DNA of 64,000 nt, taken from a virus. Location: positions 47,871-111,870 of IMG/VR virus record IMGVR_UViG_3300028027_000002; one strand, given 5' to 3'. Positions 35,946 to 59,278 of this stretch are shown here, piece by piece. The stretch's first letter is position 1. Each line of letters starts with the position of its first letter. A program made the position numbers and the translations under genes. The notes under the pieces were generated by a model, which worked only from the letters and a program-made list of their open reading frames with translations, did no database searches and had not been told where the DNA came from.

Positions 35946-35972
35946 AGTCCTAGGCATGACTAAAACTGCCTA
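35946..35972 (+). ncRNA. Repeated H-type pseudoknot motif, copy 1
   Basis: AGTC-C-TAGGCA-T-GACT-AAAAC-TGCCTA. Confidence 0.65.
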
Positions 35973-35976
35973 ACCT

Positions 35977-36049
35977 TGCCCTATAACTCAGTTGGTAGAG
36001 TGCCGAACTGTTAATTCGGATGTCCCTGGATCGAGGCCAGGTGGGGCAG
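35977..36049 (+). tRNA. tRNA-Asn(GTT)
   Basis: Cloverleaf; anticodon arm CCGAA-CTGTTAA-TTCGG; T-loop ATCGAGG; no encoded CCA. Confidence 0.9.
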
Positions 36050-36090
36050 CGTGATATAATTGTATTGTCATACCTACAAGGAGGAATATC

Positions 36091-36729
36091 ATGGCAGCAA
36101 AAGGTAGTTTAGAAGCAATCATTGAGGTTGCAAAGAAGGAAGTGGGAACAATTGAAGGCCCTAAAGATAACGAAACAAAGTACGGTGCATGGATCAAGGT
36201 TAATTTTCAGCCATGGTGCCAGTCCTTCGTTTCTTGGTGTGCATTTACTTCGGGAGTAAAGTCATTCCCTAAGTCTGCATCAACAGTTGCAGCAGCAGAC
36301 TGGTTCAAGAAGGCTGAGCGTTGGTCAGATGCTCGCAACGATGATCCACAAGCAGGAGATTGGATCTATTTTGATTTCCCAGAAGATGGTGTAAATCGTA
36401 TTTCACATGTTGGTCTTTGCATTAAGAACAACGGAGATGGAACAATCCAAGTTATTGAGGGAAATACTTCAGGAACTGCAAAGGGAGATCAGCGCAATGG
36501 CGGAATGTGCGTAGAAAAAACTCGTGCATATGTAAAGAATAACAAGAAGAAGTTAGTTAACGCTGTAGTTGGTTGGGGCCGTCCAGTCTATACTGGTGAA
36601 GAGAATGCTCCACTACTAAACAAGGTAGTTGCATCTGCAACAACTGCAGCACCAGTTAAGAAAGCAGCACCAAAGCCAGCAGCAAAGAAGTCTTCTGGTG
36701 GCGGAGGAAAGGGCAGTGTGGCACTATAA
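36091..36729 (+). CDS. Endolysin, CHAP domain
   Basis: QPWCQSFVSW, PQAGD, SHVG, IEGNT. Confidence 0.88.
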   Translation: MAAKGSLEAIIEVAKKEVGTIEGPKDNETKYGAWIKVNFQPWCQSFVSWCAFTSGVKSFPKSASTVAAADWFKKAERWSDARNDDPQAGDWIYFDFPEDGVNRISHVGLCIKNNGDGTIQVIEGNTSGTAKGDQRNGGMCVEKTRAYVKNNKKKLVNAVVGWGRPVYTGEENAPLLNKVVASATTAAPVKKAAPKPAAKKSSGGGGKGSVAL

Positions 36730-36929
36730 TGGAATCAACTAAGAGGTCATCACTTAAAACAATTAGTTGGGAAACATTTCACCTTGTAGTTCTTGCTGGA
36801 ATCATTTACATATTTACTGGTGAATGGGAGTACGCAAGTCTTGGTGCAATTCTTTACATCGCTATTGAAGCATTAGGATACTTTGTACACGAAAGACTGT
36901 GGGCAAGGTTTGGAAAGAAGGTAAAGTAA
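36729..36929 (+). CDS. DUF2061 membrane protein
   Basis: RSSLKTISW...YFVHERLW. Confidence 0.8.
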   Translation: MESTKRSSLKTISWETFHLVVLAGIIYIFTGEWEYASLGAILYIAIEALGYFVHERLWARFGKKVK

Positions 36930-37033
36930 TGAGAATTAAAATTATTAAGTTTGTAGTAAAGGCTTTGGGTTATGAGTGGGGTGGAGACAAACTAAACCTA
37001 CCTTATTGGACAGTAAAAGCAAAGAAGAAATAA
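36929..37033 (+). CDS. Small hypothetical protein (not in ORF track)
   Basis: 34 aa, TAATG coupling. Confidence 0.45.
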   Translation: MRIKIIKFVVKALGYEWGGDKLNLPYWTVKAKKK

Positions 37034-37035
37034 AC

Positions 37036-37221
37036 ATGGCCTTGTACGAATATGATTGTATGCCATGTGCACAAAGATATATAAAGGAACGGTCTATTAA
37101 GGACAATGATCCTGGATATACATGTGAAACTTGCAATACTTCTTTGGTTCGTGTATACTCTAATGTAGGAGCAGTTTTCAACGGTAGTGGATTTTATTCC
37201 ACTGATAACAGAAAGAAATAG
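37036..37221 (+). CDS. FmdB-family zinc-ribbon protein
   Basis: MALYEYDC..C...C..C...FNGSGFYSTD. Confidence 0.85.
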   Translation: MALYEYDCMPCAQRYIKERSIKDNDPGYTCETCNTSLVRVYSNVGAVFNGSGFYSTDNRKK

Positions 37222-37231
37222 GCAGTATACT

Positions 37232-37459
37232 ATGAATACCATGATAGAAACACCTGAAGAAATCAAAGAATGGGTGCTTAAGGCAACCGATAGATGTGAT
37301 TCATGTGCAGCAGAAGCCTTAGTTCAAGTTGTTGGGCTAAATGGAGAACTGTTATTTTGTGGTCATCACTACAATAAGATTATGGATGATTCAGTCGGAT
37401 ATGAAAAGATGATGAAGTTTGCAATTACTGTTACTGACGAACGAGAAAAGTTAAGATAA
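37232..37459 (+). CDS. Actinobacterial-type small zinc-binding protein
   Basis: DRCDSCAAEA...LLFCGHH. Confidence 0.65.
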   Translation: MNTMIETPEEIKEWVLKATDRCDSCAAEALVQVVGLNGELLFCGHHYNKIMDDSVGYEKMMKFAITVTDEREKLR

Positions 37460-38302
37460 GTGCTAAAGTTTCACTACATGTTTAGAGGAAATCCCTTAGA
37501 CGCTAAAGGTTTGAGGGATCTTTCTTTTCAATTAGAGTCTTTTGGGTATGAATCGGTTCTATTGACATTTCATTCAGACTCTCCAGACTATCTTGTAAAA
37601 AGTGCTGCTGCACTTGTTCCAGGACAAAAGTTAAAATATATGATTGCTCTAAGGCCATACCATATAAGCCCACAATATTGTGCCATGGTAACAGAGGCCT
37701 TTAATCAAATAGAGCCCGATAGGTTAATTTTTAACTGGATCGCTGGAGATGAAAAAAGTACCTCTGGAGAAAAACCACAGATGGATGTCTATGGAGACAC
37801 AGAAGCATTAGATAGTATAGTAAAAAGAACAACATTTTTAAGGAATTTTATTAAACAATATAATGAAATGCCAGTGATAAGTAAAAAACCAGAAATGGTA
37901 TTTAGTGGTTTTTCAGAGTATACAGTAGAGACTGCTAGAATGTTTTCTGAAACTTCTTTATCAGTTATTGATGATTACAAAAATAATATGGACAGGTTTA
38001 AAGGAATAAAAAAAATAATGGTTATGGCTACACCTGTTATACTAGAAACAGAAAAAGAAGTTGAAGATTACAAAGAGTACCTATTTAAACAAAGTTCTAG
38101 ATTTCTAGATATGTCAACAATTGGTACAAGAGATAGCGTAAAAAAACAACTTCTTGAACTTGAAGAGTATGGAGTATCAGATGTTCTGATCAACACTCAC
38201 AGGTGGGACTTGTTTGGAAAAGATAGCCCGTTAAAAGAAAAAGATAATATTTTAATTAATGATTTAATTAAAGAAATAAATGAAGAGATGGGAAAAAAAT
38301 GA
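37460..38302 (+). CDS. Luciferase-like (LLM-class, SsuD-like) monooxygenase, copy 1
   Basis: ESFGYESVLL...LKYMIALRPYHISPQY...DRLIFNWIAG resembles the SsuD LKFLVALRP...GRALFNLVTG segment. Confidence 0.75.
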   Translation: MLKFHYMFRGNPLDAKGLRDLSFQLESFGYESVLLTFHSDSPDYLVKSAAALVPGQKLKYMIALRPYHISPQYCAMVTEAFNQIEPDRLIFNWIAGDEKSTSGEKPQMDVYGDTEALDSIVKRTTFLRNFIKQYNEMPVISKKPEMVFSGFSEYTVETARMFSETSLSVIDDYKNNMDRFKGIKKIMVMATPVILETEKEVEDYKEYLFKQSSRFLDMSTIGTRDSVKKQLLELEEYGVSDVLINTHRWDLFGKDSPLKEKDNILINDLIKEINEEMGKK

Positions 38303-39057
38303 TTATTCAGATTATAGGTCTGCCAGGTGCAGGCAAGACAGAGTTAGCCAAGGCACTCAAAGAAAGAATTAACGCTATTCATCTTAATGCAGATGAGGTT
38401 CGTGCAACAGTAAACTCAGACCTAGGCTTTAGCCCTGAAGACAGAATTGAGCAGGCACGGCGCATGGGAGATATGGCTCGCCTTATCTCTAAGCAAGGTG
38501 TTGCTCCAGTAATTGTTGACTTTGTATGCCCAACAGACTTGACTCGTGCAGCATTTGGCAAGCCAGATATTTTAGTTTGGGTAGACAGAATTGAGTCTGG
38601 AAGATTTGAAGATACAAACAAGATGTGGGAAGATCCAGAGTCCTGCGATGTCCGAATCCCTTGTGGTATGACAGTAGAAGAAGAGGCTGATTTAATCATT
38701 GCTGCTTGCCAGTTACACGATTGGACAGCCCCTACAACCCTTATGCTGGGCAGATATCAGCCATGGCATGAAGGACACCACGCCCTTTACAAAGAGGCAG
38801 GTAAGAGAACAGAGCAGGTTTTGCTGGGAGTTCGTAATACCTATAATACCAGTGAGAAAGATCCACTTAAGTTTGATCAGGTAAAAGAATATATTGCCAA
38901 GGACGACTTTATGGATGGTGCATTAGTACTAAGACTACCTAACATTACTAACATCGTATACGGTAGAGATGTAGGATACAAGATTGAACAAGTAGATTTG
39001 GGGGCAGACATTCATGCTATTTCGGCTACTGAAAAACGCAAGCAGTTGGGTCTTTAA
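38299..39057 (+). CDS. cysC: Adenylylsulfate kinase fused to HxGH nucleotidyltransferase domain
   Basis: GLPGAGKT, LNADEVR, DLGFSPEDRIEQARR; second domain GRYQPWHEGH...ISATEKR. Confidence 0.82.
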   Translation: MIIQIIGLPGAGKTELAKALKERINAIHLNADEVRATVNSDLGFSPEDRIEQARRMGDMARLISKQGVAPVIVDFVCPTDLTRAAFGKPDILVWVDRIESGRFEDTNKMWEDPESCDVRIPCGMTVEEEADLIIAACQLHDWTAPTTLMLGRYQPWHEGHHALYKEAGKRTEQVLLGVRNTYNTSEKDPLKFDQVKEYIAKDDFMDGALVLRLPNITNIVYGRDVGYKIEQVDLGADIHAISATEKRKQLGL

Positions 39058-39122
39058 TTATTTAGAAGAGTCTGGTCGCTTAATGAACGAAGCAGAAGAG
39101 CGAATAATGTTTGGAGACAAAG

Positions 39123-39326
39123 ATGAGCGTAAAGAAAAGTAGATCACTTGTTAAGTCTTTAACATGGAGAGTTGTCGCAATGGTTTCAGGGTTTGTAACT
39201 CTTTATGCTTTGAGCGAAGATATTAGTCTGGCTACTATTGCTACACTAATAACCAATGGGGTTAACTTTGTGGCATACTATTATCATGAAAGAATTTGGA
39301 ATGCTGTTGGGTGGGGCAAAGAATGA
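39123..39326 (+). CDS. DUF2061 membrane protein
   Basis: RSLVKSLTWR...YYYHERIW. Confidence 0.82.
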   Translation: MSVKKSRSLVKSLTWRVVAMVSGFVTLYALSEDISLATIATLITNGVNFVAYYYHERIWNAVGWGKE

Positions 39327-39526
39327 AAGTAACCAAAACAAGATCATTTGTTAAGGCATTAAGTTATCGCATATGGGGAACACTTTCCTCTGTTGCTGTT
39401 GCCTATGTCATAACAAGAAATACTGCTCTTTCTGTAACGATTGCGTTTTGGGAAACGGTAGTTAAAATATTCATCTACTACGCACATGAGCGTGGATGGA
39501 ACTATATACAATGGGGGAGAAAGTAA
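39323..39526 (+). CDS. DUF2061 membrane protein
   Basis: RSFVKALSYR...YYAHERGW. Confidence 0.82.
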   Translation: MKVTKTRSFVKALSYRIWGTLSSVAVAYVITRNTALSVTIAFWETVVKIFIYYAHERGWNYIQWGRK

Positions 39527-39933
39527 TGTTTGAATATTATGTAAAGAAAGTAACAAAGGTCGTTGATGGAGATACCATCGATGTCGATATTGATTTAGGG
39601 TTTGACATTTCTTTTAGTTCTAGAGTGAGACTGGCTGGTATCGACACGCCTGAGTCTCGCACAGCAGACAAGGCTGAAAAGGCTTTAGGACTGGAAGCAA
39701 AGGCTTATTTGAAGGCTGCTATTGACAGTGCTAAGTCTGTAGTCATCAAGACAGAGAAGATGGACTCTTCGGAGAAGTATGGTCGTATTCTTGGCTGGGT
39801 ATACCTTGATGGAGATACAGAGTCTATCAATGACAAGATGATTAATGATGGTCATGCTTGGGGCTATATGGGGGAAACAAAGATCAAAGATTTTCAAGCA
39901 CTTGCAAAGGCTAGAAAGATTTCTGGAAAGTGA
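39526..39933 (+). CDS. Thermonuclease (SNase-like)
   Basis: VVDGDTI, VRLAGIDTPE, KYGRILG. Confidence 0.9.
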   Translation: MFEYYVKKVTKVVDGDTIDVDIDLGFDISFSSRVRLAGIDTPESRTADKAEKALGLEAKAYLKAAIDSAKSVVIKTEKMDSSEKYGRILGWVYLDGDTESINDKMINDGHAWGYMGETKIKDFQALAKARKISGK

Positions 39934-40556
39934 TCACAAAAAATATTTTAGAAAAAAATGTATACTATTATGAAAATGTTATACAAGATCCTTTAAAGTT
40001 GGTTGAGGATATAGAAAAAATAGATCACCTATTAACAGATAAAACTGGAATTTCTAAATGGTTCAAGTGGGCAGCATATCAGTCTACATATGTATTTGGA
40101 AAACAAAAGATGATAAGAGAACATCTTTTTGATAAAAATCATGAAGCATATAGCCAATGTAGGGACATAGAAAAGCAAATAACTGATGCAATACTCTATG
40201 CATCAAAAGACTATGAGTCTTTTCATACTGGACTTAGTATTGGTTTGCTATGTCCAATATCAATAAGCAAATATTCTGTTGGAGGTGAGATGGGCAAACA
40301 TACAGACACCTATGATGACGATAAGTCAAGAACTATCTCTGTTGTTCTTTATTTAAATGACGACTACACTGGTGGTGAGATTGAATTTGAAGATCAAGGT
40401 ATTTTTATAAAGCCAACTGCTGGAAGCATTATGGTGTTCCCATCAAGGAAGCCTTACTTCCATGCTTCAAAGCCAGTTCTCTCAGGAGAAAAGTATATTG
40501 TTCCAGGGTTCTGGGAAAATAGAGTTGAGTTTCAGACTGGATGGCAAAATGGATGA
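39930..40556 (+). CDS. 2OG-Fe(II) oxygenase
   Basis: HTD...YLNDDYTGGEIEF...FH...GEKY. Confidence 0.88.
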   Translation: MITKNILEKNVYYYENVIQDPLKLVEDIEKIDHLLTDKTGISKWFKWAAYQSTYVFGKQKMIREHLFDKNHEAYSQCRDIEKQITDAILYASKDYESFHTGLSIGLLCPISISKYSVGGEMGKHTDTYDDDKSRTISVVLYLNDDYTGGEIEFEDQGIFIKPTAGSIMVFPSRKPYFHASKPVLSGEKYIVPGFWENRVEFQTGWQNG

Positions 40557-40878
40557 GTTTGATGAAATAGACAGGCTTATCCTTAACGGATGTTTGGAGG
40601 TTGCAGGGATAGATATTGAAACTGGGGAACCATTGTACAACTTTACAGAAAAATTAATTGAAGTAAATCCACAACTTCACGAAGAAATATCAAGATATTT
40701 TTCTAACGAAGCAATGTCGTTGTGGAGTGAAGGATTTTTAGACATGGATGTGACAGAAAAAAATCCAATGGTAAGCCTTACACCAAAGGCATTGAATGAA
40801 GAAGAGGTTGCAAAACTAACTAAAGATAAACAGTACACGCTAAAAGAGATCATGCGTGTTATTGGTTTAGATAGGTAG
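40549..40878 (+). CDS. Hypothetical protein
   Basis: ORF coupled to upstream gene. Confidence 0.55.
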   Translation: MDEFDEIDRLILNGCLEVAGIDIETGEPLYNFTEKLIEVNPQLHEEISRYFSNEAMSLWSEGFLDMDVTEKNPMVSLTPKALNEEEVAKLTKDKQYTLKEIMRVIGLDR

Positions 40879-40899
40879 TATAATTGTTGTGGAGGAACT

Positions 40900-41319
40900 A
40901 TGGAATATTTTCTTGGATCTGCAATAACTATGATAGCCATGTTCGTAACAACACGGCTAATTTCTTCCCAAAAAACAAACATTAAAAAGAATGATTTTGT
41001 ATATAGACAAAGCCATATACATGAAATCATTTCTCCATTAATACCATACATGATGCCACATAAAAAAGAAATAGTTAGACAGTCCAGCAACCATGAAGAA
41101 AAAACAAACATAAAGGTTGTTATTTTTGACAACAAGGCCTATTTTGTTAAGGATGGTACATTTTATTGTGCAGAAATGCACGGTACAGATATAGATGGGG
41201 CCAACGCAACCCTAGTTGACACGATGGCTATGGATAAGGTACAATTAGATAAGATGCTGTTTATAATGGATCAACTTAGAGATGGGAAGAAAAATGATAG
41301 TGGGGATTCAAGGAACTAG
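40900..41319 (+). CDS. Hypothetical protein with N-terminal TM helix
   Basis: GGAGG RBS; hydrophobic N-terminus. Confidence 0.55.
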   Translation: MEYFLGSAITMIAMFVTTRLISSQKTNIKKNDFVYRQSHIHEIISPLIPYMMPHKKEIVRQSSNHEEKTNIKVVIFDNKAYFVKDGTFYCAEMHGTDIDGANATLVDTMAMDKVQLDKMLFIMDQLRDGKKNDSGDSRN

Positions 41320-41644
41320 TAGTTTTGATGACTACCAGGTTTTTCTTAGAGCCATGGCCGTTACGATGTCTTCTTTAAAAGAAGGTGATCCGTACTTCTA
41401 TCTCTATTCTGCAGGACCAGCCAATATTAACTTAATGGCTATGGAGTTTGCTAATCTGTCAGAGAGAGGTCTTAAGGCTCGTGGTAAAAGTATTAAGTAT
41501 AAGGCTGTGCCACCTTCGTGGATTACAGAAAATATTTTAGATATAAACTACTTTGCTTTTTTAAGTAAGGAAAGAGAACAGGTGTCAAAACTTGTTGACG
41601 ATGCAAAAACAAATAATGTCGAATACGGCATTTTTAGGTACTAG
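41294..41644 (+). CDS. YspA/SLOG-like hypothetical protein
   Basis: MIVGIQGTSSFDDY start resembles the SLOG/DUF2493 N-terminus. Confidence 0.4.
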   Translation: MIVGIQGTSSFDDYQVFLRAMAVTMSSLKEGDPYFYLYSAGPANINLMAMEFANLSERGLKARGKSIKYKAVPPSWITENILDINYFAFLSKEREQVSKLVDDAKTNNVEYGIFRY

Positions 41645-41653
41645 GAGATCATA

Positions 41654-41863
41654 ATGGAAATCAAGTCATTAGAACAAATGGAAACAATTGTTAAGAATAA
41701 CAAGGGTTTGGTATGGGATGGGTGGACAGTAGTTAATTCTTATCCTTCTGAGAAGGGTAGAACAGCCCCACAAGGGGCATTCGTGGATGGTAAATGGCAT
41801 CTGCAGCGTCGCTTTGTACCTTCTAAGAATGGATGGGATATACCAGACAAGTTTGTGAGTTAA
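41654..41863 (+). CDS. Hypothetical protein
   Basis: AGGAG RBS; WDGW motif. Confidence 0.55.
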   Translation: MEIKSLEQMETIVKNNKGLVWDGWTVVNSYPSEKGRTAPQGAFVDGKWHLQRRFVPSKNGWDIPDKFVS

Positions 41864-41864
41864 T

Positions 41865-42149
41865 ATGCCAAAGCACGAATGGAAAGATGATGCTTTGTGT
41901 TTAGATTACGACACAAATATATTCTTTGAAAAGTATGAAGATGATGAACTTCTAAGACCTGCAGTAGACAAACTTTGTTCTATGTGTCCAGTGTCTAAGA
42001 TGTGTTTTGCTGTTGGTGTTTCACAAAAAGAGTGGGGTATCTGGGGTGGAGTTTATCTCGAAGGTGGACAAATATCTAAAGAGTTTTCAAAACATAAGTC
42101 TAAAACAGACTGGGCAAATACTTGGCAAAGACTAACAACGGAGCAATAA
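41865..42149 (+). CDS. whiB: WhiB-family Fe-S transcription regulator
   Basis: W...ALC...FF...C..CPV...C...GIWGG. Confidence 0.92.
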   Translation: MPKHEWKDDALCLDYDTNIFFEKYEDDELLRPAVDKLCSMCPVSKMCFAVGVSQKEWGIWGGVYLEGGQISKEFSKHKSKTDWANTWQRLTTEQ

Positions 42150-42150
42150 T

Positions 42151-42387
42151 ATGTATACAGATTCAATGAGACGAGCCTTTCGATCACTTAGGGGACCAAA
42201 AGGATTTGAACTTCAAATAGTTGATAATGACAACTTCTTGACTGTAAAAGCAAGTGAGAAGCAGTTTATGAGTCTTTCTGGAGAAGAAAGAAAACAGGCT
42301 GTAGAGTATATGGTTCGTGCAAAAAAAGCACTTGAGGATAATGGTGCGATTGTTTTGTTGGTTAGAGAGGGTGGGGAAGAATTGTGA
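42151..42387 (+). CDS. Hypothetical protein
   Basis: ORF in operon. Confidence 0.55.
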   Translation: MYTDSMRRAFRSLRGPKGFELQIVDNDNFLTVKASEKQFMSLSGEERKQAVEYMVRAKKALEDNGAIVLLVREGGEEL

Positions 42388-42809
42388 TAGAGTTAATTTC
42401 ATTTTCTATTTTTATTATTTTGTTCTTTATGTTAATTTTTAACAATGTTAGATTAAACATAAAGTTGTCTGAACTTAGGCTTGAAGTTATAAAGGCTTAC
42501 CTAGAAAAAACAATCGTATCTGAAAAGTTAATAGAAATATCTGAAGAAAAAAATAAAAAAGACGACTATTCATCTGAAGCATTCTTAAAATTTATTTCAG
42601 ATTCTAGAGACTGGGCATATCAGTATATAGATGAAGTTCAAGAAGGAATAAATAAGTTTGTTACTGATATTGAGCCTGAAATATCATACTTTGATGAGTA
42701 TGGCGCAGTTGGTTCTGCGTATCCTCACTACCACTCTATGAAGAAAATTTCTGGGGCATATAAAGAACTAAAGAAACTGATACCAGAAGACTATGATAGA
42801 ATAGAGTAA
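42384..42809 (+). CDS. Membrane-anchored hypothetical protein
   Basis: N-terminal TM; FLKFISDSRDWAYQYI. Confidence 0.55.
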   Translation: MIELISFSIFIILFFMLIFNNVRLNIKLSELRLEVIKAYLEKTIVSEKLIEISEEKNKKDDYSSEAFLKFISDSRDWAYQYIDEVQEGINKFVTDIEPEISYFDEYGAVGSAYPHYHSMKKISGAYKELKKLIPEDYDRIE

Positions 42810-42954
42810 TGATCGTACTTAAATCAACTAAAAATCTTAACATGTTTATATGTGAAGAAGAGTTGTGCCAAGATGAAAGCACAAAAGTTTGGGCAAATTC
42901 TGAGAGCAGAATCGCAGACCTTTGCGATTTCCATTATTCTGAGGCAAGTAAGCC

Positions 42955-44053: not shown

Positions 44054-44070
44054 TATAGTATAATTTATAC

Positions 44071-44190
44071 TATTCCGATCTAAGACTTTAAAAGGTTTTA
44101 CAACGGATGCTCTTATGAGAAGAGAGTTAGCAGGAGTCGAACCTTCGTGGCTAATAGACCTGAGCAGTCGTCTATAAACTGCTCATTTCT
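44071..44190 (+). ncRNA. Candidate structured small RNA ending in pseudoknot copy 2 (44154-44185)
   Basis: TATAAT at 44059, no ORF, several hairpins, ATAGAC-C-TGAGCA-GTC-GTCTAT-AAAC-TGCTCA. Confidence 0.5.
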
Positions 44191-44234
44191 TATGCTATAA
44201 TATTAATACCTGCCCAAATGGGGGGTAAATTAAC

Positions 44235-44261
44235 TTATTCGCTTGAAAGGGGAATAACATG
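44235..44261 (+). promoter_or_regulatory. ROSE-like RNA thermometer hairpin over the hsp20 RBS
   Basis: TTATTCGCTT-GAA-AGGGGAATAA pairs UCGCU against the SD, 1 nt before ATG. Confidence 0.6.
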
Positions 44262-44663
44262 GTAAAAACAGCACTGGATCTTTTTAATGATCCATTTTTC
44301 AATACCTTCTCAAATTTTCAGAAGGTAACAACAACAACAAACTATCCACCTTATAACCAAATCAAACTAAATGATACAGAGTATATTCTTTCATTTGCCT
44401 TGGCTGGGTTCTCTAAGGATGATGTCTCAGTGTCGCTAGACAATCGCAAACTTACAATCAAGGGCGAGAAGCAGGATGCTGAGTTACCAGAGGGTGCGGA
44501 GTATCTACATAAGGGCATTGCTGCTCGTAAGTTTACTGATATCTTTACCCTTCCTGAGTTTGTTGAGGTAGTTGGGGCTGAGTTTAAGGATGGTATCTTA
44601 GATATCAGACTTGAAAAGCAGATCCCAGAAGACAAACTGCCAAAAACAATCGCAATTAAGTAG
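44259..44663 (+). CDS. Small heat shock protein (Hsp20/IbpA-like)
   Basis: NYPPYN, ALAGFS, YLHKGIAARKF, AEFKDGIL. Confidence 0.95.
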   Translation: MVKTALDLFNDPFFNTFSNFQKVTTTTNYPPYNQIKLNDTEYILSFALAGFSKDDVSVSLDNRKLTIKGEKQDAELPEGAEYLHKGIAARKFTDIFTLPEFVEVVGAEFKDGILDIRLEKQIPEDKLPKTIAIK

Positions 44664-46696: not shown

Positions 46697-46698
46697 AG

Positions 46699-51978: not shown

Positions 51979-51987
51979 TAGCCCAAC

Positions 51988-52146: not shown

Positions 52147-52196
52147 AGTACCAATAGTATCATGATTTGCCACGGTATGTCAAGTATAATGAGTCT

Positions 52197-52514
52197 ATGG
52201 ATGAAGCAGTCTTATACATACTATACAACCCACTACATAAGGCTGTCAAGGTGGGTATATCAGATATATCAGGCAGAAGGTTTGCAAGCCATAGGACCAA
52301 GGGTTGGATACTTATTAAGTATTGGCATTTTTTCGAACGGGATAAGGCAAGAGCCGTAGAAACCCTAGTACTAAGAACACTAAGGGAAAGATATGGACAC
52401 TTTTTGGATAAGGCGGATATGCCTCAAAGCGGATACACAGAGACCTTTGATGCCTCAAAGATAACCCGTAGGGCGTTGATCCGTATGGTCAATAAGGCTA
52501 TAAAGCAGACTTGA
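52197..52514 (+). CDS. GIY-YIG-superfamily nuclease-like protein
   Basis: LYILY...VKVGIS...RRFASH...E; leaderless TATAAT promoter. Confidence 0.55.
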   Translation: MDEAVLYILYNPLHKAVKVGISDISGRRFASHRTKGWILIKYWHFFERDKARAVETLVLRTLRERYGHFLDKADMPQSGYTETFDASKITRRALIRMVNKAIKQT

Positions 52515-52607
52515 TCCCCTGGCATTTTGGACATTGCTTAGTAGGGTTTGACACCCCATAAGGTACTTGAAACATACCCCCACAGTCAAAGCATAGGATA
52601 TCTAACA

Positions 52608-52793
52608 TTACTTACATGCCAGACAGTAGTACGGAGCACGAAGATTGTCTATATGGGTGTAGATGGTTTGAGCACACTTAGCACAGTTAATATGTACCAT
52701 GTTTGGGTCTACAGTAGGCATTGAGAGTTTAAAGTTTTTTGTATAGTATATCTTAGTGGCATACCAGGTGATTAGTATTATAATTATTTCCAT
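52608..52793 (-). CDS. Small membrane/zinc-ribbon protein
   Basis: Hydrophobic N-terminus; CAKC...CLAC. Confidence 0.5.
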   Translation of the reverse strand: MEIIIILITWYATKIYYTKNFKLSMPTVDPNMVHINCAKCAQTIYTHIDNLRAPYYCLACK

Positions 52794-52834
52794 TAGTCTA
52801 TTCTATCACATCAAGGTTAACAGTTATCCACAGG

Positions 52835-53065
52835 TTAGTGTTTATTTAGCCACTCCTGAAAATCTTTTTTGGCTTTCTCTTTTGGCCATCTGGAGAGATC
52901 ATCCCCATTCTTGATAGCCTCTTTTCTTTCATAATCATCCAAACCAATAAAGTATCCAACTATACTCAAACATACTGACCACCAAAAAGATAGTCCAAGA
53001 AGTGCTGAAAATACAATAAAGAATGCAGTTGTTAGTATTGGCTCTGTCTTGATTTTTTGATTCAT
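52835..53065 (-). CDS. Small membrane protein
   Basis: Two TM helices. Confidence 0.5.
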   Translation of the reverse strand: MNQKIKTEPILTTAFFIVFSALLGLSFWWSVCLSIVGYFIGLDDYERKEAIKNGDDLSRWPKEKAKKDFQEWLNKH

Positions 53066-53078
53066 AGTTTCCTATAAG

Positions 53079-53402
53079 TTAAAATGATAGGATTGTAGCA
53101 ACAAATAGAGCAAGGATTAGAAGCCCAAACGAACCACACAAGAAGAGAGCAACACCATTTAGATATACCTGATTCATTGCTGATTTTCTAAGTTGGTTTG
53201 GCTTTGTATAAAACTCTGGATCAATACTTTCTATTAAAGCCCTTGCCTCATTCACAGGAATCTTTTCTTCCCTTGCAGCACCAAAGATATCTCTGACTGC
53301 TTCATCAACATATAGTTTTGCATCTTCTGGAGATAACTCAGACATTTCTTTTTTGATTCTTATCTTAAGGTGTACAAGGCTTTCTCCGTCTTTTAGTATC
53401 AT
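53079..53402 (-). CDS. Membrane protein with C-terminal TM
   Basis: ORF with upstream TTGACA-17-TATACT. Confidence 0.5.
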   Translation of the reverse strand: MILKDGESLVHLKIRIKKEMSELSPEDAKLYVDEAVRDIFGAAREEKIPVNEARALIESIDPEFYTKPNQLRKSAMNQVYLNGVALFLCGSFGLLILALFVATILSF

Positions 53403-54480
53403 TGTAATCTTTCTGTTGTAGTTATATTCTAAGTATATACCCGCAGATGTGGTTTGTCAATAGGACTTATCCACAGATAAATACCCATAAAAATGTTAGT
53501 TATCCACACCTTTATCCACAGATAAATGTTACTGATTATATTATTAGACAGTCTAGAAGTGGAGTGAAGTGGAGGATAGTGGAGTAGGGAGCATCTTTAA
53601 AGAGGGCGTCGTAATCTTTTATAGCGGCCAAACCTCACATCTCCAAACCTTATAGCCCCCTTATACCACATATGAATCATATTGTCAAACCTTTGTATGC
53701 ATGGTTTGGGCATTATATACCAAACCTTTGTATTTGTCAAGCCCATTTTATGCCAAAACCTCATATAAAATTTGCTCAAATTTGCTCAGAAAATAAAGAA
53801 AACCTTCATAAAAATATATAAAGGTTTGGAAAAGTTTTAAAAATCAGGAAATAATTTATAGTGGTTTGTTATGGTGTATATACTATAGGGGATTGTGGGT
53901 TTCATCTTGATCCCCTGGCAAAATCGCCTGGTACGGGGAAGAAAAATGCTCCATCGTAATCTTATTTTGAAAAGCCCTGGTACGGGGAAAAATTTTGCTC
54001 CTTCGTAATCTTTTTTTAGAAGAGCGTCAGTTGTGTATAGACGTTGTCCCCACCTGCGGTGTCCTTAGCAGGATTATGATTCATTTTTAGCGGGGGAGAC
54101 TTAGGAAAGAAAGCCTTAAGAGTAACAATAGAATACAACATACCAGTTAAAGCACCCACTGCTTGATCAAACCCATATGAATCATATGGTGTATCATGTC
54201 TATGTGATTTGCTATTAATCATCTGAGCAAAATGGTCTCTAGGCATATCTTTATTATAACACCAGATATGAAGGTTTGACAAACAAGGTTTGATATGGTA
54301 TAAGGTTTGGTACGGGGAAAAGAATTCGTCCTTCGTAATCTTATTCTGGGAAAAATAAATGAGTGATCGTAATCTTATTTTGGAAATGTGGTTTGTCTAA
54401 TATGTCCGATTTGATATGATTTGACGTCGACGTCCCATAACCCCAGGCTTTTGTCAAGCCCAGGGATCAAGGATAAGATA
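53403..54480. repeat. Largely non-coding repeat-rich region (candidate origin/control region)
   Basis: DnaA boxes at 53467, 53500, 53512; many CAAACCT/AGGTTTG heptamers; AT-rich stretch 53760-53870; three TGGTACGGGGAA...TCGTAATCTT direct repeats. Confidence 0.6.
54016..54246 (-). CDS. Hypothetical protein
   Basis: Leaderless TATAAT-6-ATG (MPRDHF...). Confidence 0.45.
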   Translation of the reverse strand: MPRDHFAQMINSKSHRHDTPYDSYGFDQAVGALTGMLYSIVTLKAFFPKSPPLKMNHNPAKDTAGGDNVYTQLTLF

Positions 54481-54481
54481 G

Positions 54482-54793
54482 TTACTCTTGTGTGTCGGGT
54501 GGTGTGTTTTCTTTTTTGTTGTAGGCAAACGCCAAAATTGAGCCAAGGTCTCTATCTTCAATAGAGCCATCAACTTCTTCCTCAGTGACATTAATTAAAT
54601 CTAGAAACATCTTGAATGTTTCATTAATCATTTCTTCACCAAGTGGTGTTAGGTCTTTAATCAAACCTTGTGCCACCATGTATGCCATTGGACAACCTAG
54701 GTCGTTGTATTCCATAAAATTCTTGAAGTCTTCATCTTCACGGAATTCAATCCATAGTTGACCAATCGTTCCTGCTTTATCTGCGAAGTCCAT
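54482..54793 (-). CDS. Hypothetical acidic protein
   Basis: ORF; FMEYNDLGCPMAY motif. Confidence 0.6.
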   Translation of the reverse strand: MDFADKAGTIGQLWIEFREDEDFKNFMEYNDLGCPMAYMVAQGLIKDLTPLGEEMINETFKMFLDLINVTEEEVDGSIEDRDLGSILAFAYNKKENTPPDTQE

Positions 54794-55016
54794 TTACGGG
54801 TCCTTTCATCTCTAACATAAGTTTATCATACTCTTCCATAGATGTCAAACTCAAAACCTCTAGTCTGTGGTAGTTAATCAAGGGTAGGTTTCTTACCATG
54901 TAGTATCCTACTCTTTCTAAGTCTACCGCAAAATCTTGGGTAAGAAGTCTGCCTAACTGTTCTGCCATTCGTGTTTCTTTATTATGAGTCGCCGTTCGTC
55001 TAATTGAATAAGCCAT
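54777..55016 (-). CDS. Hypothetical protein
   Basis: GAGGAG RBS; TTGCGC-17-TACAAT promoter. Confidence 0.55.
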   Translation of the reverse strand: MAYSIRRTATHNKETRMAEQLGRLLTQDFAVDLERVGYYMVRNLPLINYHRLEVLSLTSMEEYDKLMLEMKGPVNGLRR

Positions 55017-55111
55017 AGGTATCTCCTCTGTTCCATTGTATCAAAAAGTAAGGGGGAGCGCAAGCCTACGAAAACCTACGCTCCACCCTGTTAGTCTAAG
55101 GGACCCACTCC

Positions 55112-55480
55112 TTAGATCTGCTCAACCAAAACCTTTGGCACATAAGCATTAATAAATAACTGCCAGTCAACCTGTAGGTCTCTGCCAGCCTCATAGATAG
55201 TCTCTTTAGCAATATCGATGACTACCGTCGTCTCACCTAGTTCAAAGTTAGTACCAGTAATAGCATAGATACCAAACCCTGTTTCCTCCAGAATTGAATC
55301 TTGCATAAGATAACTAATCATCATACGGGTAAAGTAAGCATAGTCGCTCCACCTAGGTTTTGAATGCTGCAGCGCCATTGCTAGGTCCCGCTGCCACTCA
55401 GTCTCACCCCAGTGGCTATATAGGACTACATGCGCCTCATCTTCAACATCCTTGAATACAAAGTTGATCCGTGCTCCCAT
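55112..55480 (-). CDS. Hypothetical phage protein (LYSHWG motif)
   Basis: AGGAG RBS; MGAR...LYSHWG...YFTRMMI. Confidence 0.6.
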   Translation of the reverse strand: MGARINFVFKDVEDEAHVVLYSHWGETEWQRDLAMALQHSKPRWSDYAYFTRMMISYLMQDSILEETGFGIYAITGTNFELGETTVVIDIAKETIYEAGRDLQVDWQLFINAYVPKVLVEQI

Positions 55481-55770
55481 TAGTCTTGCTCCTTAAAAGA
55501 TACAATTGATAGTTGATTTAAAATTTCATTGCAGAGGTCCTCTTCATTATCTGATTCGGCCTCGTATCTAAATGTCATGTAGTCGCCTGTAGGCTCAAAG
55601 ATTGTTTCAACTTTCCAACTAGGCATTCTCTACCTCAAATGTTTGAATAGTTGTGTAGTGAATAATCTCCTTAACTAAATCCTCTTTTGACCTAGCAGAT
55701 GACTCGTAGTCAAGGATTGTGAGAGATTGCTTTGTTGGTTCAAAAACAAAATACAGGTTGTATTTAGCCA

Positions 55771-56205
55771 TTATTTATTTTCCATTTCTATTAGGGTCAT
55801 TTCTTCAATTGTAGCGCATTGTGGGCACTTTTGCAAGTCTGCCTCGTCAAAGGCATCTCTAACTATATTATCAGGGTCCTCAAACTCAGCATTACAGTTC
55901 TCGCAGTAGAACCAGTTATGGCTTACCAAGACCTGCACGGTATCGTCAGGGGTGAAAGGAATCTCAGTGACAAAGTATCCTATTCTATTAACAAATCCCC
56001 AACCATTCCAGATATATGTGCCACCGTCGTCTCCGTCTCCATACATCCAGATATGGCCATTGCCTGCCTGCTTTACAAACTCTACTTCCTCACCATATGT
56101 TTCAAACATCAATCCGTCGAATGAAGCATTAGTGTCTATATGATTAGTGATAGGCTTGTACTTATCTACCCACTCTTCAAATTCAAGTTCTGTAAAGTTA
56201 CCCAT
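55771..56205 (-). CDS. Hypothetical protein with C-terminal zinc ribbon
   Basis: MFETYG...GFVNRIGYFVT; CENC...CPQC. Confidence 0.6.
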   Translation of the reverse strand: MGNFTELEFEEWVDKYKPITNHIDTNASFDGLMFETYGEEVEFVKQAGNGHIWMYGDGDDGGTYIWNGWGFVNRIGYFVTEIPFTPDDTVQVLVSHNWFYCENCNAEFEDPDNIVRDAFDEADLQKCPQCATIEEMTLIEMENK

Positions 56206-56458
56206 TACTCTTTATCCTATCTGCGATAGCAAATGCTAGGTCATATGTTAATTGGTATACTTCTACATAAGCGTCAAGCATACCCTCTAGATGTAGGCGG
56301 TCTACGGTTTGGTCATACTGCTCATTCTCATGGTCAGTATACTCAGCCAATGCTTGCTCGGTTTGATACATGAGGTTCTTTAATTCCCCATGTAGGATGT
56401 TGGTACCTGATTCACCTAAGTCAATCAGTTTTTGTAGTCTTGGGTCTAATGTTGTCAT
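56198..56458 (-). CDS. Hypothetical protein
   Basis: Leaderless gene under a RecA-NDp-type promoter. Confidence 0.55.
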   Translation of the reverse strand: MTTLDPRLQKLIDLGESGTNILHGELKNLMYQTEQALAEYTDHENEQYDQTVDRLHLEGMLDAYVEVYQLTYDLAFAIADRIKSNG

Positions 56459-56666
56459 TAGTCTATTGTAGCCTCTAGCACTGACAAGAAATGGTAGCAG
56501 GCAAGAATCTGTCCAGTAGTAGAAACATCTTCTAACTCTAAGTCCTTATACTCATCACAGTCAAGGTCATCATAGAAGCCCATTTGCTTCTGTAGTTCCT
56601 CAGAGTCTTGCTCCAAGGACAGCAGGTGTAGTCTTACATATTCTTCGAATGTTTTTAGGTCCATAG
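56458..56666 (-). CDS. Hypothetical acidic protein
   Basis: Likely start MDLKTF; leaderless TTGTCA-17-TATAAT. Confidence 0.5.
56465..56486 (-). promoter_or_regulatory. RecA-NDp/PafBC-type promoter
   Basis: TGTCAG-tgctagaggc-TACAAT. Confidence 0.75.
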
Positions 56667-56668
56667 TA

Positions 56669-56899
56669 TTAATTATACGGGTTGGAGTCGATTTTGACAA
56701 CTGTACGGGGTGTGACCTTGCTCACATCTGTAATGATCGGAGCATAGGCCTCTTCATAACTAATATAGTTTAACATCCTACCACAAGGGCATTTCATTTC
56801 TACAACGCCCAGGGGAAAGCCAAAGCCATCCCTAGCAGTAAACTCAACCATAGCGTCACACTCTTCGGGATCACAGACAAAGGTATACTTACTCCACAT
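56669..56899 (-). CDS. Small zinc-binding protein
   Basis: CDPEEC...CPCG. Confidence 0.55.
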   Translation of the reverse strand: MWSKYTFVCDPEECDAMVEFTARDGFGFPLGVVEMKCPCGRMLNYISYEEAYAPIITDVSKVTPRTVVKIDSNPYN

Positions 56900-57224
56900 T
56901 AGTCAAAGTACCCTTCTGCCCATAGTCCATCTAAGAACTCTGTTGCTTTAAATAGATTATCATGTAGCCAAGGGTCGTTGTTAAAATCAACGGTAGTTAA
57001 AGCAGAATGAATAGCCATAGACATATTGTCTAGATCTTCTTTAGTATAACCTAACATACTTCCTCATCCCACCAGTATTTGACTATAGTATTTAAGGTAG
57101 TGTGAATTGCACAATCACAATCCCCACCGTTCATATTTTCCATGTATTCGAGATGGGACTCGTTGTCCATATACATCTCATTGACTAGTTCGTCAATCGT
57201 TCTCATTGTTTGGGTCATGTATTA

Positions 57225-57246
57225 ATTGTAGCGTATGGGACTGACA
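57225..57246 (-). promoter_or_regulatory. RecA-NDp/PafBC-type promoter
   Basis: TGTCAG-tcccatacgc-TACAAT, ATG 6 nt downstream. Confidence 0.75.
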
Positions 57247-57338
57247 AATGCAAGGTTTGGGGAAAAAATATTTCCTATCGTAAAGAATTTCTGGGAAAAA
57301 TATCAGCCTATCGTAAAGTTATTTAATTAAAAATATTA

Positions 57339-57354
57339 TGTGATGTAGGTCACA
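57339..57354. promoter_or_regulatory. CRP/GlxR-type box
   Basis: TGTGA-TGTAGG-TCACA, perfect consensus. Confidence 0.7.
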
Positions 57355-57403
57355 GCCGACGTCGCAAAATTTTTATGCATTGCGTTGCATATTTATTTAC
57401 TTG

Positions 57404-57477
57404 CGATCCGTATGGGACTTGAACCCATGACCTCCACCGTGACAGGGTGGCGAACTAACCAACTATTCTAACGGACC
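57404..57477 (-). tRNA. tRNA-Asp(GTC)
   Basis: Cloverleaf; CCACC-CTGTCAC-GGTGG; GGTTCAAGTCC. Confidence 0.92.
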
Positions 57478-57481
57478 ATGT

Positions 57482-57511
57482 TGAGCAGTTTTAATTCATG
57501 CTCAGGAAATT
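57482..57511 (-). ncRNA. Repeated pseudoknot motif, copy 3
   Basis: AATTTC-C-TGAGCA-T-GAATT-AAAAC-TGCTCA. Confidence 0.65.
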
Positions 57512-57514
57512 TTG

Positions 57515-58528
57515 TTATGCGTTTGTTAGTTCACGCACAACTTTTAGCAAACGATTTTTTTCTGCGTTGATAGCAGGGTCAAAACCACTTGCAGATGCAA
57601 GAATGGATTCGTTAGAACCACCACGAGCAGAACGGTACCAGTCAAGGCGTTCTGTTAGTGCATTGAAAGCACCCCACGCATTACCAGCAATCATTCCATT
57701 AAACTCGCCTGTATAGATGTCGTTAATAACATCTACCTTGTTTTCCCATTTCTTGAAAGCACCCTTAGAATCCTTTTCAGGCTTTGGGTATGCAGCAAGA
57801 ATGATGTCGTTAAACATCTGAGCAGACACTTCTTTTTCAATCATAGCCTTAGCCATAAGGTCAAAAGAGTCCATGTACTTATGTGCAAGTCCAAGAGTTT
57901 CACGAGCAACGGCAACCTTACCGCTTGCAGTTTGTGTGTGACGAATCTTGAATGATTGCTTTACGCCACCCTTTTTGCGGGTAGTGTTAAGTGCAAGATT
58001 GAGAGTGTTAGCGCACACAACACGAACAGGTGTAATGCTTGCTTGAATAGCGATTGAGCCATCATGTGATGTGTTGATGAGCAAATAAGTTTTTACCTTG
58101 TCTGCAACACCATTAGGGTCAAGAATTGTTTCACGCTCTAGTGCTAAAGCACCGAACACTACACGACCACCCTTGATTGAGCCAGCCGTTTCCCAACGAC
58201 CACCACCATCAAGAATGTTATCACCGAATGAAAATAAATCTTCATTCTGCATTACATGGTAACGCTCACCAACGACACCAAGAATGTCGGTCTGAGTGTT
58301 GTCAGTAGGATTGGTACGCAATACATACTGATAGTTTTTGTCGCTTGTTAGGTGTGTGGGGGTTTCCAAATCCTCAAGACGAACATTCCAGTTGGAAAGG
58401 TTAGCCAAATCTAACATTTCTTTTGTGGTTTTTTCCTCTGTGAATACGGTACCCAATCCATGCCAAGCGGGTTCACGGAAAGATGCAAAAGATGCTTTTC
58501 CGTTTTGTGTTTCTAGGTCATGTGCCAT
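57515..58528 (-). CDS. DUF932 (phage/plasmid-like) protein
   Basis: PAWHGLG, ETAGSIKGGRVVF, NTSHDGS, TPVRVVCANTL, IRHT, AWGAFNALTE. Confidence 0.88.
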   Translation of the reverse strand: MAHDLETQNGKASFASFREPAWHGLGTVFTEEKTTKEMLDLANLSNWNVRLEDLETPTHLTSDKNYQYVLRTNPTDNTQTDILGVVGERYHVMQNEDLFSFGDNILDGGGRWETAGSIKGGRVVFGALALERETILDPNGVADKVKTYLLINTSHDGSIAIQASITPVRVVCANTLNLALNTTRKKGGVKQSFKIRHTQTASGKVAVARETLGLAHKYMDSFDLMAKAMIEKEVSAQMFNDIILAAYPKPEKDSKGAFKKWENKVDVINDIYTGEFNGMIAGNAWGAFNALTERLDWYRSARGGSNESILASASGFDPAINAEKNRLLKVVRELTNA

Positions 58529-58559
58529 GAGTTTTCTCCTTTTTGTTGTTGTTAATTTA

Positions 58560-58581
58560 AGTATACACCCACCCACTGACA
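58560..58581 (-). promoter_or_regulatory. RecA-NDp/PafBC-type promoter
   Basis: TGTCAG-tgggtgggtg-TATACT. Confidence 0.75.
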
Positions 58582-58711
58582 AATGCAAATCGGGATAGTT
58601 AGATGTGGATAAATCGGACATTGTGGTGAAGATCACCTATCGTAAACGGCGTGTCGATTTGACAAAGTTATCCACAGGCGGGACGTCAAAAATTTGCAGG
58701 GATTTTAAAAA

Positions 58712-58740
58712 TGAGCAGTTTTTAAACATGCTCAGGTTTA
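58712..58740 (-). ncRNA. Repeated pseudoknot motif, copy 4
   Basis: TAAAC-C-TGAGCA-T-GTTTA-AAAAC-TGCTCA followed by T-run. Confidence 0.65.
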
Positions 58741-58754
58741 TTAGTAGCCCCCTA

Positions 58755-59174
58755 CTAAATATCCACTCGGTCAATCGATGACGATAACCATGAAATATTA
58801 TCTGAGTTGTATTGCACTGTATCAAAATCAATATCATGAATTAAATTCTGTGCATCCTCTTCATTACGAGCATTGACAGTTACGGAGTACATTACTGTAA
58901 CTTCAACTTCAAATTCTTTTGATAGTTCAAATCCACAGATATCTGCAATTTCTTGTGCTTCTGATTCATTCAATGTACCAGAGTCAAGCGCTTCCAGTGT
59001 CCACTCTTGCATTGCTTCAACGATACGATTCTTATCTGCAGACTCGCCGTATGAGCGTTGTGTTACTACTTGAATATGCTTTTCTAGTTCATCTATGCGT
59101 GTTTTGTTTTGTGCAAGAGTGGTTTCTAAAAACTCTCTTGTCATGTAGTGATTATCGATTACTGGTTGGTCCAT
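58755..59174 (-). CDS. Hypothetical acidic protein
   Basis: GAGG RBS; C-terminal VTVNARNEEDA motif. Confidence 0.6.
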   Translation of the reverse strand: MDQPVIDNHYMTREFLETTLAQNKTRIDELEKHIQVVTQRSYGESADKNRIVEAMQEWTLEALDSGTLNESEAQEIADICGFELSKEFEVEVTVMYSVTVNARNEEDAQNLIHDIDFDTVQYNSDNISWLSSSIDRVDI

Positions 59175-59208
59175 AAGGGCTACCTCTTTCTGTTAGTTGT
59201 TTAGTTTA

Positions 59209-59230
59209 ATTGTACTGGGTACCACTGACA
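59209..59230 (-). promoter_or_regulatory. RecA-NDp/PafBC-type promoter (also TTGACA -35)
   Basis: TTGACAAA-TGTCAG-tggtacccag-TACAAT. Confidence 0.75.
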
Positions 59231-59251
59231 TTTGTCAAGGGCCCTTGCGGG

Positions 59252-59278
59252 GAGCAGTTTTGATACTTACTCAGGTAT
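59252..59278 (-). ncRNA. Repeated pseudoknot motif, copy 5
   Basis: ATAC-C-TGAGTA-A-GTAT-CAAAAC-TGCTC. Confidence 0.55.

Follow-up and report, generated by a model that had tools for sequence, protein, structure and literature searches.

Coremin pseudoknots, the exonuclease-resistant RNA (xrRNA) xrRNA-C and its Watson-Crick variant xrRNA-WCC, occur in beny-, cucumo- and other eukaryotic RNA viruses and are able in vitro to stop a processive exonuclease as well as ribosomes (PMC6546385, PMC10520033, PMC10321173). They are built from a hairpin of 3-5 bp closed by a pyrimidine-purine (C-G) pair, a loop of consensus YGAD or YGNNAD in which G is fixed at position 2, a spacer reading ..UUAAACUAC, in which AAA, CU and AC are all essential, and a second hairpin right after the spacer that is required for resistance to Xrn1; a screen of their frameshifting activity has been run in Escherichia coli (PMC6546385, PMC10520033, PMC10321173). 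Here, an RNA pseudoknot of about 28 nucleotides (nt) with a likeness to these viral elements is described from DNA phages and bacteria. Five copies are present in the window analysed, a 64,000-nt stretch comprising bases 47871-111870 of the 111,870-bp IMG/VR phage record IMGVR_UViG_3300028027_000002, the ends of which overlap by 99 bp.

The element is a compact H-type pseudoknot and a self-contained cis-acting RNA, and its structure is well supported. In the consensus fold, a first stem (S1; 3-7 bp with a closing C-G pair) is followed by a bridging C (L1), the 5' strand of a second stem (S2; UGAGCA), a junction of one base (L2; N), the 3' strand of S1, a spacer NNAAAC (L3) and the 3' strand of S2, UGCUC(A). 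The motif resembles coremin in the short first hairpin (3-5 bp in coremin) closed by C-G, in the lone, essential bridging C and in the A-D at the end of the loop; the spacer also contains AAAC-U, in part because the search required it, and several phage copies read GACGUUAAACU like beet necrotic yellow vein virus. In both, the loop pairs with the spacer to give an H-type pseudoknot that usually lies in untranslated or intergenic RNA. However, the phage loop is 8 nt long and begins with C-U-G instead of Y-G, agreeing with coremin only in its first base (Y) and last two (A-D), and S2 has 5-6 Watson-Crick pairs, whereas xrRNA-C has none and xrRNA-WCC has three. Further, AAACU is followed in the phage motif by GC, not AC, and the obligatory second hairpin is absent, a hairpin starting 0-3 nt after the motif in 37 of 478 copies, which is rarer than at shifted control positions (62-77). 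The carriers here are DNA phages and bacteria, without Xrn1. Thus, with U instead of G at loop position 2, an S2 of 5-6 bp and no second hairpin, the motif is not a coremin member, although it may work in a similar way.

The gene 32 leader pseudoknot of phages T2 and T4 has, like the phage motif, a one-base L1 over an S2 of 6-7 bp. Intercistronic or 3' stabilisers include the RNase III sites of T7, Rhodobacter puf, the repetitive extragenic palindromic (REP) hairpins of E. coli malE-malF, and the engineered evopreQ1 and mpknot on prime-editing guide RNAs (pegRNAs). All lie dispersed between genes, where they set the 3' end of the RNA segment upstream of them and protect that end, which is the role proposed here; natural stabilisers, however, are long or G+C-rich hairpins of single lineages, whereas the present element is a tiny pseudoknot with a sequence conserved across phages of many phyla. 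The frameshift pseudoknots of luteoviruses such as beet western yellows virus (BWYV) and potato leafroll virus (the luteovirus comparison is drawn in PMC10321173 as well) resemble the motif in their length of about 28 nt, a very short L1 with C, a junction of one base, an L3 that is rich in A and suits minor-groove triples, and a position 5-10 nt downstream of the A-site codon. In the phage motif, by contrast, the upstream codon is a stop and not a slippery heptamer, with no extended reading frame behind it. Its stems are also the other way round from those of BWYV, S1 being rich in A/U and S2 the longer of the two. Unlike both the luteoviral and the gene 32 pseudoknots, it is present in many copies per genome, after unrelated genes.

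As the preliminary description had supposed, the motif belongs to no named family: no Rfam 15 family matched at gathering thresholds over the window, and none matched at E <= 5-10 where the window, five bacterial loci and three cultured phages carry the motif. Full-text searches of the literature turned up no description of the motif sequence or of gene-end pseudoknots in phages, a 2023 catalogue of 10,006 viral candidate RNAs (PMC10690425) lying outside this comparison. Integron attC, a CRISPR-repeat mimic, hammerhead and pistol, each considered for a resemblance, were dropped on topology and the lack of an Rfam match. Judged by its sequence, the motif is a member of neither the coremin nor the luteovirus type, though these are the closest known RNAs.

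Fold and covariation

Five copies on the sense strand had been proposed for the window, with the layout S1 - C - UNNGYA - 1-3 nt - S1' - (N)AAAC - UGCNN and covariation in both stems of an H-type pseudoknot. Re-reading of the sites found all five base for base as described and with this layout (Table 1); copy 3 is taken to end at 57508, the earlier end, 57511, taking in three unpaired bases. S1 differs in each copy and is always paired. The compensatory swap claimed for S2 was likewise found, with TAGGCA/TGCCTA in copy 1 (a double change) against TGAGCA/TGCTCA in three copies; the S2 of copy 5 has one G-U pair and lacks the terminal (outer) pair.

A strict two-box pattern occurred three times in the window and in none of 100 shuffles. 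A covariance model (R1), from whose training copies 1, 2 and 5 were left out, returned exactly the five window copies at E <= 2.5e-5, including the three unseen ones (copy 1, 23.7 bits and E 2.5e-5; copy 2, E 8e-10; copy 5, E 5e-8); the next match had E = 0.02. A chance origin of the window copies is excluded. A sixth copy lies in the same genome outside the window, at 296-322 (-) (G000:C1). The AAACTGCYY sites at 32, 9948, 11520, 13036 and 37169 of the window are not copies of the motif, and the covariance model did not recover the site at 17042-17072 (-), which is without S1.

The fold was followed beyond the window with an IMG/VR pattern consisting of CCTGAGCA, a gap of 4-12 nt and AAACTGCTC, in which the pairing of S1 was left free. 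Among the 146 instances listed, the gap was 7 nt in 104, and S1 was able to pair over at least 3 bp in 141, with dozens of different S1 sequences. A sequence-free descriptor of the S1/S2 pseudoknot was uninformative, giving about 900 matches per strand. It was replaced, as a test of S2, by a skeleton of the invariant bases only, scanned with a reversed-sequence control over 1.19 Mb of fetched loci plus the genome. S1 was fully paired in 91 matches, and the four inner positions of S2 were fully paired in every one of these, including 17 with a non-canonical S2 (GGGU/ACCC, GGAC/GUCC, AGAC/GUCU, AAGC/GCUU, GAGU/ACUC and G-U wobbles). When S1 was unpaired, S2 paired in only 3 of 31 matches, and in the reversed-sequence control it paired in 0 of 19. 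When 93 copies were aligned without gaps, pairing held in 97.8% of cells, compared with 23-39% after the partners were slid, and 8 of the 10 pairs change on both sides; these copies were chosen for pairing, so that the skeleton scan is the unbiased test. The closing pair of S1 is C-G in 91 of the 93 aligned and 124 of 128 scanned copies, the pattern that yielded most copies fixing the C but leaving its partner G free. Read from the opposite strand, the G-U and U-G pairs would become A-C mismatches, so the element acts as a sense-strand RNA.

The unpaired bases C and AAAC are near-invariant, and the 5' strand of S2 is all purine, across phages of unrelated hosts. The 8-nt loop reads C-U-R-R-R-Y-A-W, with U always at position 2. 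AAAC-U is invariant, partly because the search forced it, and the next two bases, G-C, lie in a Watson-Crick stem. In compact pseudoknots of the Pleij type, as in luteoviruses, one L1 base can span an S2 of 5-6 bp through the deep groove, and the shallow groove of a short S1 accommodates an L3 rich in A. By analogy, the invariant C, AAAC and all-purine S2 strand are what triple interactions would conserve. Over the 10 nt directly downstream of the motif, G makes up only 8% and is nearly excluded at +2 and +3; a G there would extend S2 by pairing with L1 and the closing base of S1, at the cost of L1 and S1.

Two further forms of the element were seen. At L062:6625-6676 and L071:3078-3144, a hairpin is inserted in place of the one-base junction L2, so the fold tolerates a third helix at that point. 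Six loci (L063:1974-2010, L037:3672-3708, L037:3322-3358, L073:4516-4552, L010:11355-11375 and L057:2947-2967) end in AAAAG-GCUCA instead of AAAAC-UGCUCA, which is one base shorter and gives an S2 of 5 bp.

Placement and distribution

What stays constant in the placement is the end of an ORF upstream. Counted from the end of the stop codon, the distance at which S2 begins has a sharp lower limit of 10 nt (38 instances at 10 nt, 24 at 11, 15 at 12 and the others trailing off over longer distances; n = 201), gaps of 4-9 nt being found in only four instances, and in another 13 cases the UGA of the motif is itself the stop codon. Measured to S1, the distance has a mode of 5-6 nt, or about 5 nt for an S1 of 4 bp. 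When a stop codon occupies the ribosomal A site, the mRNA entry site falls at that spacing, which is the first position at which a structure needs no unwinding; frameshift pseudoknots use the same spacing. The stop-to-motif distances show no marked frame preference (79/61/61). A -1 frameshift site of luteovirus type was rejected on these frames, on the stop codon that occupies the distance of 5-8 nt at which a slippery heptamer would lie, and on the tRNAs, promoters or new start sites that come next.

On the downstream side, a tRNA on the same strand (n = 78) begins 2-8 nt after the motif in 74 cases, with a mode of 3 nt, and never, among the scanned instances, does a tRNA lie just upstream. 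An excess of tRNA-Asp is due to one conserved locus, the spacer between a DUF932 gene and tRNA-Asp that holds copy 3. The fold is kept there in all 80 fetched relatives; spacer and stem sequences drift, with S2 changing to TAAGCA/TGCTT or TAGGCA/TGCCT. The next open reading frame (ORF) starts 10-39 nt downstream in 74 of 168 instances, and TTTT lies within 30 nt downstream in 33 of 128, against 15 of 128 upstream. Clustering of the flanking ORFs found no gene family that accompanies the motif, the upstream ORFs falling into 94 clusters among 138 and the downstream ORFs into 125 among 168.

The pattern scan found the motif in at least 120 IMG/VR contigs, and over all searches its carriers number hundreds of unrelated phages and some bacteria. 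Relatives of the window phage carry two or more copies, with five in one 115.7-kb genome. Three cultured phages have one copy each, namely the T4-like cyanophage S-RIM4 (Synechococcus), mycobacteriophage Labelle (Patiencevirus) and the T7-like Paracoccus phage ParMal1, always in an intergenic spacer and 6-10 nt after a stop codon. The motif is not a family trait of the window phage. Among species-representative bacterial genomes, about 91 of 123 pattern matches have a paired S1; the approximately 26 matches without S1 pairing are about the chance expectation. The bacterial matches include metagenome-assembled genomes (MAGs) assigned to Saccharibacteria, Lachnospiraceae, Aminicenantes, Anaerolineae and Omnitrophota, and isolates among which are Calothrix, Lactobacillaceae and Paenibacillus. 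In prophages of two Lactobacillaceae isolates (L177:4553-6204 and L189:117-1949), the motif separates the gene for the minor capsid protein from the scaffold gene within an SPP1-like head module.

A distinct class was found at 18 bacterial loci of several phyla, where the UGA forming the first triplet of S2 is the stop codon of a 20-aa ORF (consensus MKRFMVPRVAHCxEGCxxxS) with a strong Shine-Dalgarno sequence. The carriers are MAGs of Aminicenantes, Thermodesulfobacteriota, Eubacteriales, Actinomycetes and Spirochaetota, the neighbours are housekeeping genes, and an intrinsic terminator often lies 15-25 nt downstream. The peptide had no Pfam or NCBIfam match. Selenocysteine insertion or readthrough at the in-fold UGA was rejected, since the frame beyond it is inconsistent in length and often stops at once (as judged by eye), with no marked frame preference.

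Copies and neighbouring features in the window

Copies 1 and 3 had been described as each lying between a stop codon and the 5' end of a tRNA, 4 nt before the latter, and ARAGORN and Rfam agree. One point of placement is corrected here: only copies 1, 3 and 4 follow the stop codon of a sizeable ORF, by 5, 6 and 14 nt, respectively. From the nearest ORF of at least 50 aa, copies 2 and 5 are separated by about 100 and 153 nt.

Table 1. Positions of the pseudoknot copies, adjacent window features and bacterial small-ORF loci
Feature	Position	Strand	Details
Pseudoknot copy 1	35946-35972	+	S1 AGTC 35946-35949 / GACT 35958-35961; L1 C 35950; S2 TAGGCA 35951-35956 / TGCCTA 35967-35972; L2 T 35957; L3 AAAAC 35962-35966
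Pseudoknot copy 2	44154-44185	+	S1 ATAGAC/GTCTAT; L1 C; S2 TGAGCA/TGCTCA; L2 GTC; L3 AAAC
Pseudoknot copy 3	57482-57508	-	S1 TTC/GAA; S2 TGAGCA/TGCTCA; L3 TTAAAAC
Pseudoknot copy 4	58712-58740	-	S1 TAAAC/GTTTA; S2 TGAGCA/TGCTCA; L3 AAAAC; then TTTTT
Pseudoknot copy 5	59251-59278	-	S1 ATAC/GTAT; S2 TGAGTA/TGCTCC; L3 CAAAAC
Promoter-like site	59209-59238	-	TTGACA-18-TACAAT; directly downstream of copy 5
tRNA-Asn (GTT)	35977-36050	+	ARAGORN, Rfam; follows copy 1
tRNA-Asp (GTC)	57403-57477	-	ARAGORN, Rfam; starts at 57477, follows copy 3
286-aa ORF	35080-35940	+	No family match; stop TAG before copy 1
373-aa DUF932 / phrog_1221 gene	57515-58636	-	Stop TAA before copy 3
139-aa ORF	58755-59174	-	Stop TAG before copy 4
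Small ORF	L182:7517-7579	-	20-aa class
Small ORF	L135:109-171	+	20-aa class
Small ORF	L209:1648-1710	+	20-aa class
Small ORF	L198:2742-2804	-	20-aa class
14 more bacterial small-ORF loci			20-aa class

Copy 2, which is conserved in L006, L007, L045, L058, L065 and L097, is followed by an extended -10-like sequence, TGCTATAAT, and lies upstream of an Hsp20 gene. On the 3' side of copy 5, a small CCC-tetraloop-GGG hairpin, CCCGCAAGGG (59239-59251, -), precedes the TTGACA promoter-like site; copy 5 thus belongs to the upstream transcript and not to the leader of the next gene. The same order of pseudoknot, hairpin and TTGACA promoter is frequent in the lineage of the window phage (relatives L025, L070, L090, L038, L099 and L066), with UUCG, GCAA and other loops; the hairpin is not enriched across all carriers. 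Promoter-like sites follow window copies 2, 4 and 5, which places these copies on the upstream transcript and speaks against a protection of downstream RNA.

Some further features of the window were noted. Within the 100-nt gap between a 105-aa ORF and copy 2, the stretch at 44115-44150 (+) contains GGAGTCGAACC, whose reverse complement resembles a tRNA T-arm (GGTTCGACTCC); ARAGORN calls nothing there, and the stretch could, from its sequence, be a tRNA remnant or the core of an attachment site. Upstream of copy 5, 150 nt (59279-59430, -) are without an ORF of at least 50 aa and may hold an unannotated small gene or a non-coding RNA; the end of this region (CTGCAAGARGTGTAA) is conserved in the relatives L037 and L038. 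The phage also encodes an HslV/proteasome-like peptidase (34320-34844) and an Hsp20 small heat-shock protein (44259-44663). Megablast of two window segments against cultured phages gave no match.

Candidate functions and significance

The fold, its strand, its conservation and its rules of placement are direct observations. The reading that we favour, tentatively and with somewhat less than even confidence, is by analogy that of a barrier folded beside the terminating ribosome, which would cap the upstream message against 3' exonucleases. The pseudoknot would mark where a cistron ends on its 3' side, at a distance from the stop codon that is just sufficient for the fold to survive termination. 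RNase P cutting at a neighbouring tRNA, a terminator, or endonucleolytic cleavage of the unstructured, G-poor tail would then produce a 3' end a short way downstream, and 3'-to-5' exonucleases would be left a tail too short to engage; the upstream message would thereby be stabilised and insulated from what follows. Both the blocking of exonucleases and this origin of the 3' end are what we infer from the placement.

It is above all the placement that favours a cap, as the fold must persist beside the terminating ribosome, is tied to the upstream ORF and often lies a few bases from a site at which a 3' end is made, most clearly that of RNase P. With a gap of 2-8 nt and a mode of 3, RNase P would leave a tail of only about 3-4 nt, and a 3'-end cap after RNase P, as first suggested for copies beside tRNAs, is consistent with this gap and with the position after stop codons. 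The covariation and sense-strand wobbles of both stems, the scarcity of G at +2 and +3, the hairpins tolerated at L2, the unrelated upstream ORFs and the retention of the fold between DUF932 and tRNA-Asp are also counted for a cap, as is the analogy with coremin, which halts an exonuclease and ribosomes in vitro (PMC6546385, PMC10520033, PMC10321173).

Several points weigh against this reading. Since the next ORF begins 10-39 nt downstream in about 44% of 168 instances, the motif is mostly intercistronic and not at the end of a primary transcript; many copies are internal to operons, and a 3' end there needs a putative endonucleolytic cut. In the small-ORF class, an ordinary intrinsic terminator often follows (for example at L146 and L198) and the stop codon lies inside the pseudoknot, so that a cap would be redundant and every ribosome would open the fold. 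The stability is modest by our own rough nearest-neighbour estimate, and a G+C-rich hairpin would block exonucleases equally well. Further, the invariant loop bases (C, AAAC and U-R-R-R-Y-A) could instead reflect recognition by a conserved partner, and the coremin data concern a 5'-to-3' enzyme, not a 3'-to-5' one.

The strongest alternative is a barrier to machines that move 5' to 3', such as ribosomes (in readthrough or post-termination sliding), RNase J or Rho, which would make the motif a coremin-like insulator of translation and decay right after the stop codon. We regard it as unlikely, even though the sharp minimum spacing corresponds to the reach of a terminating ribosome and the C-G closing pair, one-base L1, loop end A-D and AAAC-U spacer core are those of an RNA that stalls Xrn1 and scanning ribosomes and stimulates -1 frameshifting. 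The instances standing 10-39 nt before a start codon suit such an insulator; before tRNAs, promoters and terminators, however, there is little downstream RNA to protect. The second hairpin that coremin needs against Xrn1 is rarer here than in the controls, and in the small-ORF class the ribosome must traverse the fold to reach the stop codon. RNase J is, to our knowledge, absent from many of the hosts.

A specific site for a conserved partner appears distinctly less probable. Candidates for the partner are host factors such as RNase P, ribosomal proteins or tRNA-processing enzymes, small ligands, and a defence protein for which the motif would be a decoy, for example by mimicking a type III antitoxin RNA. 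Such a site would be expected to have unpaired bases that hardly vary and an S2 strand restricted to purines, as is the case in phages of unrelated hosts, and type III antitoxins are also A-rich H-type pseudoknots (PMC12283969). However, L1 and L2 are single bases and offer no obvious pocket, no gene family co-occurs with the motif, and no Rfam riboswitch or antitoxin family matched. A type III antitoxin RNA (ToxI/CptI/TenpI) was rejected because copies are single and dispersed, not in tandem beside a toxin gene, and their flanking genes are unrelated, although no search aimed at toxin families was made. ACCA follows UGCUC in 14 of 142 instances, recalling the acceptor end of tRNA; at about 10% of instances, with no adjacent T-arm and no ARAGORN tRNA over the motif, a tRNA-like acceptor pseudoknot of the turnip yellow mosaic virus type, whose 3' strand precedes NCCA and stacks on a T-arm into a helix of 12 bp, was discarded. 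A queuosine link through a preQ1-I riboswitch, prompted by the Asp and Asn tRNAs, was also rejected: there was no Rfam match at E <= 10, the genome has no queuosine genes (neither TGT nor QueC), L2 is one variable base instead of carrying a ligand-reading C, and the motif sits after genes and not in a 5' untranslated region.

A transcription-termination or RNA-processing signal, whether a terminator of unusual form or a place where a nuclease or the RNA itself cuts, is improbable and the least likely of the four readings. The element is intergenic and strand-specific, T-runs are enriched downstream, and T-rich tracts follow copies 2 and 4 and the sixth copy. A U-tract is missing from most instances, however, and many have a ribosome-binding site or a tRNA, which need transcription, within 5-25 nt downstream; no Rfam ribozyme family matched, and we know of no natural self-cleaving ribozyme as short as 28 nt. 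The aptamer and self-cleavage functions floated in the preliminary description thus gained no support, there being no ligand-type pocket, no link to a gene family and no queuosine genes in the genome.

Termination in the small-ORF class requires the ribosome to open the fold; none of these four readings accounts well for this, a hint of a role linked to translation. A broader view, doubtful but to be taken seriously, is that the motif is the prokaryotic counterpart of coremin xrRNAs in phages of many phyla and some bacteria, a universal 28-nt barrier that would halt translocating machines, namely terminating or sliding ribosomes and processive exonucleases, at cistron boundaries. If so, one portable RNA module would set mRNA stability and translational insulation gene by gene, and the 20-aa ORF with its in-fold UGA would be a translation-sensing use of that module.

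Because each of three cultured phages has a copy, the motif lends itself to direct testing. If such a reading is true, the element would be among the smallest and most widely spread structured RNAs of phages, so far uncatalogued, with carriers ranging from T4-like, T7-like and siphovirus-type phages to Firmicutes prophages and MAGs from Saccharibacteria to Aminicenantes. Synthetic transcripts could then be stabilised or insulated with it as a 28-nt part, and it would link bacterial mRNA decay to the exonuclease-resistant RNAs of eukaryotic viruses. For the phages themselves, it would be a portable answer to how cistron boundaries and lifetimes are set in compact polycistronic messages.

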